From Diretmus argenteus (Eukaryota): a stretch of DNA of 64,000 bases. Position numbers and translations under genes: made by a program. Of this stretch, positions 36,545 to 39,600 are shown one piece after another (position 1 is the stretch's first letter; every line of letters begins with the position of its first letter). A model generated the notes under the pieces. The model saw nothing but the letters and a program-made list of their open reading frames with translations. It had not been told where the DNA came from and ran no database searches. Location: NCBI GenBank assembly GCA_048569125.1, contig CM109057.1, positions 34,942,381 through 35,006,380 of the forward strand, in the 5' to 3' direction.

Positions 36545-37336
36545 ATGGAATCCAATGGCTTTTCATACACCGAAGAAGAAGGGAGACGTATCATCACAAG
36601 TTCTTCACTACTGGATGGTGTAATGGTCAGTGACTCTACAAGCTCTGATATGAACACTATTTTTACAGACCTGAAGTTTTTAAAAGAGAAGGACATTAAA
36701 CTAGATCTGACTTCCATCACTCTATCAGATTACTGGAGAAGAGGTCTTATCCCACGAGGACTTAGAATATTGAAGTTCCCAGCCAATGGCTCAGGTGACA
36801 ATGATACATTCAGAAATAAATGGGATGCAATTCTGAATAAATGTTCAGCTGACCTGATGCTCCTATTAATTGAGGAAGCAAAAAAGGATAAACAAGTAAT
36901 TCAGGAAAAGATAGAGGCACTTGACAAGAAATTAAGTGAATGCAATGGCCATCCTGATTTAGCTTCCCTAGTGAATAAATTGGATCTGAATCTGACCAAA
37001 TTCAAACAGTCACTGAAACAAGAGAAGATCCGAAAATTCCAACGTGATGAAAATGACTATAAGAATAACCAAGTTTATTCATGGAAGAGATCCAGGACAC
37101 AACAAGAACCCCAACGTCGTCCTAGGACGGTGTCATGGAACCTCACCACCAGCGGAGATGATTCTGAAGCAAGTGCATCAACGGATTTTTTAGGGGACAA
37201 CGACGACCACACCCAAAGGAACACAGACCGGGCTCCAACCTACAGAGGCCGTGGAGGAAGAAGGGGACGAGGAGAGGGCGCAAGAAACCAGCCTCGCACC
37301 TACTACATGCGGAATCGCAGCAAACAGAGACTGTGA
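36545..37336 (+). CDS. PLE ORF1 (unit 2), 264 aa from ATG 36545 (ttgaccATGG Kozak context)
   Basis: MESNGFSYTEEEGRR...LLLIEEAKKDKQVIQEKIEALDKKLSE (coiled coil)...RGRGGRRGRGEGARNQPRTYYMRNRSKQRL (basic, RG-rich). It ends in TGA, overlapping the ORF2 frame by 4 nt. Confidence 0.75.
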   Translation: MESNGFSYTEEEGRRIITSSSLLDGVMVSDSTSSDMNTIFTDLKFLKEKDIKLDLTSITLSDYWRRGLIPRGLRILKFPANGSGDNDTFRNKWDAILNKCSADLMLLLIEEAKKDKQVIQEKIEALDKKLSECNGHPDLASLVNKLDLNLTKFKQSLKQEKIRKFQRDENDYKNNQVYSWKRSRTQQEPQRRPRTVSWNLTTSGDDSEASASTDFLGDNDDHTQRNTDRAPTYRGRGGRRGRGEGARNQPRTYYMRNRSKQRL

Positions 37337-39600
37337 TTAATCTAGCAGGTATCCCCCTCTCCGACACCCACATTACGGTCTTATCCAAAGGTCTAACTTT
37401 TGCCCCTACTTGTACCTCCAACAGCTTTGATGTTAAAGTCGACCTTTTCCGTTTTTATAGGAACTTGCATCTTAAAGCATGGTACAAATTGAATCCCACC
37501 CCAGACTACACCCCTAACTCCCCTGATCAGGCAGTCCATACCCCTTTTAAGCCTAAATCGCGATTCTGCCCGGTTGTGCAAAATACGACTTTAAATACCT
37601 TTGAGAAAAAAGTTAACTATGAAGTGGAGAAACTTTTTTCTAAGGAAAATCCCAAACATAGACATAACCTTACAAAGGCTGAAAGGGATGCTATTAAGGA
37701 ACTCTCTGAAAACACAAACATTGTAATTAAAAGGGCGGATAAAGGTTCAGGGGTCGTTGTATGGGGATATGAGCAATACACAAACGAGGCATTTCGACAG
37801 TTGCGAGATGCTAACTTCTATGCTCCACTGACTAACAATCCTATTACCACGCTGACACAGGAGCTCTATGAGCTACTCTCCAGGGCAAAAGAGGAGAACC
37901 TTATCTCTGAACAGGAGTTCAAGTTTTTATTCTGTTCAAGTCCAAGAATGCCATCCTTTTATTTATTACCTAAGTGTCATAAACACCCAACAGCGCCACC
38001 TGGGAGGCCAGTAATTTCGGGCAATGAATCATTGACAGAACCTATATCTAAATTTGTTGATTTCCATATCAAGCCGTTACTGCATCTCCTTCCTGCATAT
38101 GTACAGGATACAACCGATGTCCTCAGTAAGATCAAGAGTGACAATTTTGTGGGCCGCGATACATTACTCTGCGTGATGGATGTTGAGAGTTTGTACTGTA
38201 ATATTGAACACGGGCAAGGACTATCAGCTCTGAGGCACTTCCTTGACAAAAGGCCTCTCCCACATGACCCTCCTACTTCTTTTCTCACAGACCTCACAGA
38301 ATGGACTCTAAATAACAATGTTTTTTTGTTTCAGGATAAACTATTTAAACAAGTGAAAGGCTGTGCCATGGGGGCGTGTTTTAGCCCATCGTATGCGGGA
38401 TTATTCATGGGGAAGTGGGAGGAGGATATAGTATACCATCCCCAAAATCGATTCAGAGATAAAATAATATGGTGGACCCGGTACATTGATGACATTTTGA
38501 TGTGGTGGAATGGTACTGCTGATGAATTACTGTTGTTCCATACATATTTGAATAATGCTAACCCTAATGTAAAGCTCTCGCTGGAATTTGATAGAGACAA
38601 AATCAATTTCTTAGACCTGGAGATAAGCAAGGACATGAATGGTTTTTTGCACACCTCCATCTATAGAAAAGACGTGCATAAGAACACAATTCTGCATGCT
38701 AAGAGTTTCCACCCAGAGCCCCTTATCAAAAACATTCCTTTTGGGCAATTCCAAAGGTTACGCAGGATATGCAACAGTGACACGGATTTTATTTCTAAGA
38801 GTGCAGAGATGTATAGTCGGTTTAGAGAACGTGGCTATTCACCAAACACTCTGGATTCGGCTCTCAGTAGGGCGAGTGCCCTTGACCGAGATTCTTTGTT
38901 GAAGAGAAAACCCCCCAAAGTTAAAAAAGATAGAGTGTTCTTCTCTACAAAATACAGCACTGAGGCGATAGGCATACGTAGTATTATAAAAAAGAACTGG
39001 GACCTCGTCCGATGTGACGAGGTTTTGCAACAAGTGTTTCCAGACCCCCCTATCTTCTCCTTCAGGAAAGCTCCTACCCTAGGGGATAGATTGGTACATA
39101 GCCACACACCAGCCAAAGAATCGAGATCCACTTGGCTTCCTCCTGTACCTAATGGTACATACAGATGTGGCCATTGCAGGCAGTGTGACATAATTACAAA
39201 GGGAAAAGAATTCATCCACCCAGTTACTCAGCAGAGGTTTACGAATAGGCACTTTCTTAATTGCAAAAGTACCCACTGTATTTATATTCTCAGCTGTAGT
39301 TTATGTGATGCCTTTTATGTTGGACGCACTAAGCGACGCCTACAGGACAGAGTTGCTGAACACCGATATGCTGTCAAATCGGGCAACATGGACTATGCCA
39401 TGGCAAAACACCTTAAGGAAGTCCATAGTTGTAGCTCAGTCTCTTTTACTGTGTTAGGGATAGACCACGTTCCTTCAGCCCTCAGAAGAGGTGATAGGGA
39501 AAAGACCCTTAATCAAAAAGAAAGCCGCTGGATCCACACTCTTCAGGCCATGTCCCCCCCAGGTCTTAATGACACCATTGATATGATATCTTTCTTATAG
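37333..39600 (+). CDS. PLE ORF2 (unit 2), 755 aa: N-terminal domain, reverse transcriptase, CCHH linker, GIY-YIG endonuclease
   Basis: Motifs: FYLLPKCHKHPTAPPGRPVISG; LLCVMDVESLYCNIEH; QVKGCAMGACFSPSYAGLFM; YIDDILMWW; CGHCRQC...HCIYILSCSLCDAFYVGRTKRRLQDRVAEHRY. The frame is open upstream of 37333, and there is no ATG near the N-terminus. Confidence 0.9.
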   Translation: MINLAGIPLSDTHITVLSKGLTFAPTCTSNSFDVKVDLFRFYRNLHLKAWYKLNPTPDYTPNSPDQAVHTPFKPKSRFCPVVQNTTLNTFEKKVNYEVEKLFSKENPKHRHNLTKAERDAIKELSENTNIVIKRADKGSGVVVWGYEQYTNEAFRQLRDANFYAPLTNNPITTLTQELYELLSRAKEENLISEQEFKFLFCSSPRMPSFYLLPKCHKHPTAPPGRPVISGNESLTEPISKFVDFHIKPLLHLLPAYVQDTTDVLSKIKSDNFVGRDTLLCVMDVESLYCNIEHGQGLSALRHFLDKRPLPHDPPTSFLTDLTEWTLNNNVFLFQDKLFKQVKGCAMGACFSPSYAGLFMGKWEEDIVYHPQNRFRDKIIWWTRYIDDILMWWNGTADELLLFHTYLNNANPNVKLSLEFDRDKINFLDLEISKDMNGFLHTSIYRKDVHKNTILHAKSFHPEPLIKNIPFGQFQRLRRICNSDTDFISKSAEMYSRFRERGYSPNTLDSALSRASALDRDSLLKRKPPKVKKDRVFFSTKYSTEAIGIRSIIKKNWDLVRCDEVLQQVFPDPPIFSFRKAPTLGDRLVHSHTPAKESRSTWLPPVPNGTYRCGHCRQCDIITKGKEFIHPVTQQRFTNRHFLNCKSTHCIYILSCSLCDAFYVGRTKRRLQDRVAEHRYAVKSGNMDYAMAKHLKEVHSCSSVSFTVLGIDHVPSALRRGDREKTLNQKESRWIHTLQAMSPPGLNDTIDMISFL

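Follow-up and report, generated by a model that had tools for sequence, protein, structure and literature searches.

The sequence analysed here, referred to as the window, is a stretch of 64,000 nucleotides from Diretmus argenteus (contig CM109057.1 of assembly GCA_048569125.1, positions 34,942,381 to 35,006,380 of the forward strand), and it carries a recently inserted array of an endonuclease-containing (EN+), Neptune-type Penelope-like element (PLE). The units of this array hold an upstream open reading frame (ORF), ORF1, which overlaps a start-less ORF2 encoding a reverse transcriptase (RT) together with a GIY-YIG endonuclease (EN). From the comparison of related sequences, the RT-EN is very probably made as a fusion to ORF1 through conserved -1 programmed ribosomal frameshifting (PRF) at positions 37186-37192. 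The coordinates of all features are collected in Table 1.

Overlapping reading frames in an array of Penelope-like units

A repeat map resolves the insertion into one 3729-bp unit arranged in tandem and with a head-to-head inversion, and a tblastn search of the window found ORF1 three times, from 36545 and 40274 on the plus strand and from 34838 on the minus strand. Both plus-strand units have fully intact ORFs and differ at one base only, G at 37183 and A at 40912, a synonymous difference in a Thr codon of ORF1 located three bases 5' of the slippery heptamer described below; in the untranslated -1 frame the same G-to-A change would turn Gly into Arg. The minus-strand unit has a period of 3727 instead of 3729 and a 2-nt deletion near 32449 (~32440-32480), which breaks the frame of its ORF2 at about amino acid (aa) 524-537, and is otherwise the same as the plus-strand units. 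Since the units were copied in one event, the agreement among them says little, and a test of the layout must come from other genomes. The first-pass annotation of this DNA had argued from the same layout in all three units that it was not copy-specific decay; the argument is weak by itself, the units being virtually identical, and the conclusion holds on account of the hundreds of fish and amphibian elements with a separate ORF1.

The same annotation described a 264-aa ORF1 upstream of the RT ORF, starting at ATG 36545 in an accATGG context. The ORF is there with a length of 263 aa, the start reads gaccATGG, and its choice is supported because homologues align from residue ~6 on. Its description of ORF2 was accurate: this frame lies at -1 relative to ORF1 and has four nucleotides in common with it (GTGA), it is devoid of ATG for about 200 codons, the first Met being codon 206, and it is already open inside ORF1, where the 55 codons between a TGA at 37165-37167 and position 37333 (from 37168 on) contain no stop. 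This first Met falls past the essential N1-N3/DKG motifs; more distant single-ORF PLEs start with a Met upstream of N1.

The identity of the element follows several features of EN+ PLEs. ORF2 encodes a telomerase-like RT with N1-N3/DKG and YxDD motifs, for which the Pfam RVT_1 match is weak (E 1.4e-4, under the gathering score), and its homologues carry PF00078, PF28514 and PF26215. A GIY-YIG domain with a CCHH arrangement is found at the C-terminus (Pfam match with E 3e-3, likewise under the gathering score), and pseudo-long terminal repeats (pseudo-LTRs) are represented by the 3729-bp tandem units, the 344-nt terminal partial unit and the inverted head-to-head copy. The placement in the Neptune clade rests on the RT-EN linker CGHCRQC, which conforms to CX2-5CxxC; Neptune and Nematis have a CX2CxxC linker, which Penelope/Poseidon lack (Craig et al. 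2021, PMC8557442). In place of the canonical single ORF for RT and EN, two overlapping ORFs are present, the second of them without a start codon.

ORF1 belongs to a vertebrate-wide protein family without known homologue. A search with ORF1 returned 108 proteins at 27-57% identity, nearly all of 200-300 aa, with named matches in teleosts (Knipowitschia, Carassius, Coilia, Mugilogobius and Austrofundulus) and amphibians (Xenopus and Ranitomeya); the salamanders Pleurodeles and Lissotriton were added by a profile search. When 1.84 billion cluster representatives were searched exhaustively with an HMM, 2583 relatives were obtained, again almost all of 200-300 aa, 471 of them at E<=1e-30. The existence of conserved homologues in other PLE copies had been set beforehand as a test that could refute the two-ORF layout, and such homologues were found: in contigs with a related ORF1, an RT ORF (PF28514, RVT_1, PF26215) lies directly 3' in the -1 frame, often with the same 4-nt overlap. 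When the predicted 1018-aa fusion was used as query, zero natural single-frame ORF1-RT proteins were obtained, and the long ORF1-containing proteins from the representative search look like gene-model chimeras. As judged by these alignments, ORF1 is a conserved, separate ORF of ~250-290 aa in hundreds of fish and amphibian elements, and its recurrence in relatives ahead of a -1-frame RT ORF indicates that the two-ORF layout is ancestral and not a shared lesion.

Chimeric "uncharacterized proteins" occur in public fish and amphibian annotations (P0069, P0121, P0129, P0148, P0198 and P0206), in which spurious introns carry the gene model across the ORF1/ORF2 frameshift, or ORF1 is joined to neighbouring host genes (porin, GTPase-like protein).

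The slippery heptamer, the dual-coding overlap and competing explanations

A search of the ORF1/ORF2 overlap for slippery heptamers, recommended by the first-pass annotation, was productive. Of the three in-frame heptamers of ORF1, only U_UUU_UUA at 37186-37192 leads into a -1 frame that stays open, for 804 codons, and this frame opens six codons before it. The heptamer lies 144 nt 5' of the last base of the ORF1 stop codon. The homologous site was tabulated in 18 elements sharing 30-57% ORF1 identity, namely the window, 10 Logan/ENA loci, a decayed Xenopus laevis copy and 6 metagenome contigs, and an in-frame X_XXY_YYZ heptamer was found in 18/18 (UUUUUUA in ten, UUUUUUG in five and GGGAAAC in three). 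In the UUUUUUA/G elements the Phe codon is always UUU and the Leu codon always UUA or UUG, and the codon preceding the Phe always ends in U (GAU, UCU, CGU, AAU, ACU, CAU, CCU); the corresponding codon of the GGGAAAC subgroup has a final G. Genes whose proteins share 30-57% identity are expected to have randomised synonymous sites, and the invariance of these codons therefore points to a constraint at the nucleotide level. At the protein level, F215-L216 are conserved at >=90% in ORF1 alignments within a hypervariable acidic/Ser-rich linker, and in a subgroup (P0003-P0009) x-F-L is replaced by S-G-N, encoded by ucG GGA AAC in register. The exchange of one canonical heptamer for another in register argues for tandem-tRNA slippage as opposed to a protein motif or polymerase slippage.

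The GGGAAAC heptamer is accompanied by a conserved C5/G5 hairpin in all three elements, at a spacer of 5-7 nt and with differing flanking pairs (Table 1); GGGAAAC and hairpin together are a textbook frameshift cassette. These three elements (L005, L025 and L026) form the sister subgroup nearest to the window ORF1, at 50-57% identity, and represent a natural swap of frameshift cassettes.

The second line of evidence concerns the stretch between the heptamer and the ORF1 stop. All 14 intact loci encode a T-R-R-G-R motif in the -1 frame, at a distance of 20-35 codons ahead of the ORF1 stop, and neither of the other two frames has it (0/14); its codons vary synonymously (ACG/ACC/ACA for Thr, AGG/AGA/CGC/CGA/CGG for Arg and GGG/GGA/GGC/GGU for Gly). 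Within the block around this motif the first, second and third codon positions of the -1 frame have a nucleotide identity of 0.60, 0.71 and 0.37, and amino-acid identity is 0.66 in the -1 frame vs 0.25 in the ORF1 frame, values which are illustrative only because the block was picked by its -1-frame motif. When the whole overlap was aligned without choice of motif, identity was 0.30 in the -1 frame, 0.24 in the 0 frame and 0.21 in the +1 frame. Across the overlap of the 14 intact loci no stops are present in the 0 and -1 frames and 13 in the +1 frame; a composition poor in T and rich in purines may be partly responsible for the open frames. The -1 frame is thus under protein-level selection before the ORF1 stop, and the overlap is a dual-coding stretch, serving as basic tail of the unshifted ORF1p and as basic linker of the fusion. 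The conserved TRRGR upstream of the stop implies that the -1 frame is translated before the stop, which is at odds with both termination-reinitiation and a shared mutation.

We propose an mRNA with two overlapping frames, on which ribosomes would initiate at AUG 36545 and in most cases stop at UGA 37334-37336, releasing the 263-aa ORF1p. A minority would slip back by one nucleotide on U_UUU_UUA and read on through a basic linker, the N1 motif, the RT and the GIY-YIG endonuclease. The product would be a Gag-Pol-like fusion of 1018 aa, ORF1(1-216)-linker-RT-EN, with the predicted trans-frame peptide ...STDFLRGQRR... / ...ASTDFLRGQRRPHPK. With the shift placed at 37186-37192, the RG-rich tail of ORF1 would be the C-terminus of the unshifted product only, and the fusion carries at this place a different and more conserved sequence (...KKGTRRGRKK...). 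Slippage would set a high ratio of ORF1p to RT, would tether the enzyme to the ORF1 domain and may bring the RT into an ORF1p-RNA complex. Of the expression routes considered by the first-pass annotation, fusion of ORF1 and ORF2 by programmed -1 frameshifting is thus the one retained, with the site moved from the overlap at 37333 to 37186-37192.

Its other suggestion, termination-reinitiation, assumes a stop-coupled restart at GUGA 37333-37336 with GUG as the start of ORF2. The GTGA overlap is indeed seen in the window and in L005, L007, L014 and L028, and in most intact elements the ORF1 stop lies on the Val codon of a V-I/V-N-L motif; however, the overlapping codon is GTA in L001, L008, L012, L013, L019 and L021 and ATA in L025 and L026, so no start is conserved. 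Reinitiation would, moreover, leave the conserved -1-frame TRRGR stretch untranslated and gives no account of the conserved in-frame heptamer, and we consider it very unlikely. A dead element, in which a single ORF was split by a frameshift mutation inherited in all three units, would agree with the description of canonical EN+ PLEs as single-ORF (PMC11167929, PMC8557442), and three near-identical units from one insertion amount to a single observation. Nevertheless, the two-frame layout is found in 17 other elements across the same range of ORF1 identity, the relatives among the cluster representatives are almost all stand-alone ORFs, both frames are open with the -1 frame under selection, and both plus-strand units are intact. 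The shared-mutation reading is effectively refuted by the layout in other elements and by the selection on the -1 frame, and its probability is close to negligible.

Expression of ORF2 independently of ORF1, by way of splicing, of an internally initiated transcript or of a non-AUG start in 37168-37333, with F-L as a protein motif of ORF1p, is unlikely as well. It would be in line with the retention of introns by PLEs (Craig et al. 2021, PMC8557442), with the small introns by which gene predictors join the frames in P0069, P0121 and P0198, and with the failure to find a stimulatory RNA structure for the UUUUUUA version. A protein-level motif, however, accounts neither for the exclusive use of UUU with UUA or UUG and of a U-ending codon before them, nor for the S-G-N variant, whose codons form G_GGA_AAC and which is accompanied by a canonically spaced hairpin; in 3.2-3.7-kb contigs of numerous samples the two ORFs adjoin each other with the two-frame layout unchanged, and the -1 frame offers no AUG before codon 206. 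A change of frame at the RNA level, by slippage of the polymerase on the T6 run, would be compatible with the six-U run present at the site in 15/18 elements. Six U are short for efficient polymerase slippage, though, the three GGGAAAC elements have no homopolymer run and still present a canonical tandem-tRNA slippage site, and all heptamers fit X_XXY_YYZ in the ORF1 register, which is relevant to ribosomal slippage only; this explanation is accordingly given little credence.

Several points weigh against ribosomal frameshifting on the heptamer. The 18 loci share ancestry and are not independent observations, and the case for slippage and fusion is built from sequence comparison. The Logan contigs in which ORF1 and ORF2 are contiguous are of unspecified library type, so that expression as one unspliced RNA is presumed. 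In the decayed metagenome relative L017 (2100-2320) UUUUUUG stands in the ORF2 frame, with an ORF1-like tail and N1 in one frame, and this is probably a decayed indel copy. Likewise, P0252 (650 aa), available at the protein level only, runs from the 0-frame ORF1 tail (FLEQRRGKPTKGRRGG) into the N1 motif (IVYNISS...KGLSFCP), and may represent a variant that naturally has a single frame, or else a repair made by the gene model.

The main difficulty lies in the stimulatory structure, as no convincing stem-loop or H-type pseudoknot was found at canonical spacing either for the window or for the majority of UUUUUUA/G relatives. RNAfold of the 155 nt downstream of the window heptamer gave a minimum free energy with z = -0.97, and fixed-length folds of the UUUUUUA/G elements revealed no conserved structure. 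A forced-hairpin scan with spacers of 3-10 found no consistent hairpin, the window value being equalled by 60% of shuffles and only L001 (UUUUUUG) reaching 3%, and RNAalifold on four related elements predicted zero pairs. The downstream pseudoknot that the first-pass annotation had proposed to look for was not found in the window element by a simple H-type enumerator, which returned one marginal case only, in L028. These scans leave room for bulged or long-range structures, and some stimulator may assist the UUUUUUA version; UUUUUUA alone gives low-level frameshifting.

The ORF1 protein, the ribozyme and other features of the window

The N-terminal domain of ORF1 is helical (aa ~31-173); behind it come an acidic/Ser-rich linker, which is disordered, and a basic tail rich in RG. 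The helix-forming segment LLLIEEAKKDKQVIQEKIEALDKKLSE and the basic tail RGRGGRRGRGEGAR...RNRSKQRL pointed out previously are both present. An AlphaFold2 model built with 56 homologues has a mean pLDDT of 75 and shows a helical bundle, with helices at 31-66, 87-97, 101-132 and 139-173 predicted at high confidence and residues ~180-263 disordered, so that reading the region as a coiled coil, in the sense of long amphipathic helices, is reasonable as far as the model goes. Searches of Pfam and PDB sequences gave zero matches to ORF1, Foldseek with the model returned nothing significant beyond generic fold matches, and no RNA recognition motif (RRM) was detected by either the sequence or the fold searches.

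The 5' non-coding region of the units contains a minimal type-I hammerhead ribozyme (AUCACC-CUGAUGA-A-GGC-GUUU-GCC-GAAAC-AUGU-U|GGUGA), whose CUGAUGA...GAAAC core corresponds to the hammerhead motif found in the pseudo-LTRs of EN+ PLEs. Five identical copies are present in the window vs 0.15 expected, and comparison of the window with L005, L008, L012 and L013 shows covariation in stems I and II. A palindrome, ACAUGU or, in L013, ACGCGU, makes up helix III, which suggests that the hammerhead acts as a dimer. The Rfam 15 models missed it, nothing being found in the array in scans at the gathering threshold or at E<=10.

A 24-nt tandem repeat, GACTAGCTCTGTAGCTCTGCTAT[A/C], is present in about 2.6 copies at 36113-36175 and at the same offset in each unit, and marks the 5' edge of the units at the junction of the inverted array. 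Outside the insertion, unrelated inverted repeats of 86-88% identity lie in 48742-51388 (48945-49069 with 51264-51388, and 48742-48859 with 48893-49010) and probably belong to another transposon.

Table 1. Features of the Penelope-like insertion in the window, and GGGAAAC cassettes of three related elements (cassette positions in the coordinates of the respective locus)
Feature	Position	Strand	Remarks
Whole PLE insertion	31293..43903	.	repeat map and ORF1/ORF2 tblastn vs window
Minus-strand copies	31293-36105	-	
Minus-strand unit	31788..34838	-	ORF1 34838-34047, heptamer 34197-34191, ORF2 34050-31788
5'-truncated minus-strand copy (ORF2 aa 559-755)	35515..36105	-	adjoins plus-strand array at 36102-36105
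Plus-strand unit starts	36102, 39831, 43560	+	third unit partial, 344 nt
Unit 1 5' non-coding region (pseudo-LTR / 5' untranslated region)	36102..36544	+	repeated 344 nt defined by partial unit 43560-43903
Minimal type-I hammerhead ribozyme	36246..36285	+	predicted cleavage after 36279
Further hammerhead copies	39975-40014, 43704-43743	+	
Hammerhead cores	31382-31404, 35109-35131	-	
ORF1, 263 aa	36545..37336	+	ATG 36545, stop TGA 37334-37336
ORF1/-1-frame overlap, both open	37168..37336	+	dual-coding from 37192 on
Slippery heptamer U_UUU_UUA	37186..37192	+	ORF1-frame codons GAU UUU UUA = D214 F215 L216; proposed -1 shift site
-1-frame part after the shift (linker, then RT/GIY-YIG)	37192..39600	+	within predicted 1018-aa fusion
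T-R-R-G-R-K-K motif	37267..37287	+	-1 frame within ORF1; TRRGR = 37267-37281
ORF2, 755 aa	37333-39600	+	GTG 37333 to TAG 39598-39600; -1 frame vs ORF1
N1 motif VINL...KGLTF	37333-37407	+	
DKG motif (RADKGSGVVVW)	37726-37764	+	
YIDD motif (RYIDD)	38479-38508	+	
CGHCRQC linker	39166-39186	+	
GIY...YVG endonuclease	39277-39543	+	IYIL...FYVG with CxxC...H...H
Unit 2	40274..43329	+	ORF1 40274-41065, heptamer 40915-40921, ORF2 41062-43329
GGGAAAC cassette, L005	865-900		hairpin CCCCC-6 nt-GGGGG
GGGAAAC cassette, L025	805-845		hairpin UCCCCCU-7 nt-AGGGGGA
GGGAAAC cassette, L026	780-820		hairpin GCCCCC-9 nt-GGGGGC

Significance and comparison with known systems

Of the classes of retrotransposons in eukaryotes, PLEs are understood least, and both biochemical work and reviews treat the EN+ members as single-ORF. 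A frameshift-separated ORF1 is already mentioned for some PLEs, and the window element adds a well-supported case. A literature search for PLEs combined with frameshifting or slippery sites, which did not extend to key older PLE papers or to Repbase, found as its only mention the legend of Fig. 1 in Craig et al. (2021, PMC8557442), stating that [quoted passage not shown]; taken by the wording of the legend, this probably means the Athena clade, because two ORFs typify these EN-minus elements (PMC13159263). It is quite possible, if somewhat less likely than not, that the conserved PRF cassette carried by EN+ PLEs of vertebrates has so far escaped formal description, in which case the "single-ORF" definition of canonical PLEs would have to be revised. 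We hold with similar reserve, as a possibility slightly short of an even chance, that a large, vertebrate-wide EN+ Neptune-type lineage obligatorily makes its RT-EN as an ORF1 fusion by conserved -1 frameshifting, using two interchangeable cassettes, a dual-coding stretch of 45-60 codons and an uncharacterised family as ORF1. If true, the third class of eukaryotic retrotransposons would possess a Gag-Pol-like mechanism of stoichiometry, and access to the RT by recoding only would account for the start-less ORF2, the chimeric gene models and the annotations of an "ORF1 without similarity". ORF1p is consequently a candidate ribonucleoprotein or assembly factor of a widespread fish and amphibian PLE lineage. 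The heptamer gives precise mutations for the study of PLE retrotransposition requirements, and for the recoding field these elements constitute a natural comparative series, with two heptamers at one site, with and without an obvious stimulatory hairpin.

The closest relatives are the Neptune EN+ PLEs of fish and amphibians, with which the window element shares the N1 (KGLxF), DKG and YIDD motifs of the RT, the C-terminal GIY-YIG with CCHH, the CX2CxxC linker, tandem/inverted insertion with pseudo-LTRs and the hammerhead ribozyme. Canonical EN+ PLEs are described as having a single ORF (Frangieh et al. 2024, PMC11167929; Craig et al. 2021, PMC8557442), whereas in the window element a start-less RT ORF would be reached from a separate, conserved ORF1 by -1 frameshifting. 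In a Neptune element of Fundulus an ORF1 without database similarity was reported upstream of the RT ORF, and the two ORFs were called non-overlapping (Roussel et al. 2025, PMC12602865). The likeness to Athena of bdelloid rotifers, drawn by description only, consists in the two ORFs and the coiled-coil character of ORF1. Athena is EN-minus and attaches to telomeres, whereas the window element encodes a GIY-YIG domain and forms an interstitial array, and it consequently falls outside that clade; in contrast to the frameshift with a pseudoknot given for PLE ORF1 in the cited legend, the window element yielded no pseudoknot.

Among the long interspersed nuclear elements (LINEs), the ORF1p of L1 (coiled coil, RRM and C-terminal domain, CTD) resembles the window ORF1 in its upstream position, its long amphipathic helices and a basic stretch with potential for nucleic-acid binding. 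The window ORF1 differs in that its sequence resembles no Pfam family or PDB chain, and it cannot be counted as a member of this group, so the kinship with LINE ORF1 proteins seen by the first-pass annotation reduces to a functional analogy. The ORF2 protein of L1, moreover, is not known to be produced fused to ORF1p.

Retroviral gag-pol differs from the window element in its protein content: the latter has a telomerase-like RT plus a GIY-YIG endonuclease, and no protease, RNase H or integrase, while ORF1p found no Gag or capsid homologue in sequence and fold searches, and a downstream stem-loop was not found for the UUUUUUA version. The resemblance lies in the proposed recoding. As in HIV-1 gag-pol, a structural-type upstream ORF holds the heptamer U_UUU_UUA and overlaps, in the -1 frame, a polymerase ORF that has no ATG start; the window sequence UUUUUUAGGG is the same 10-mer as the HIV-1 gag-pol site. 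The sister PLE subgroup, in turn, matches retroviral gag-pol -1 PRF in its alternative heptamer, GGGAAAC, followed by a downstream GC hairpin.

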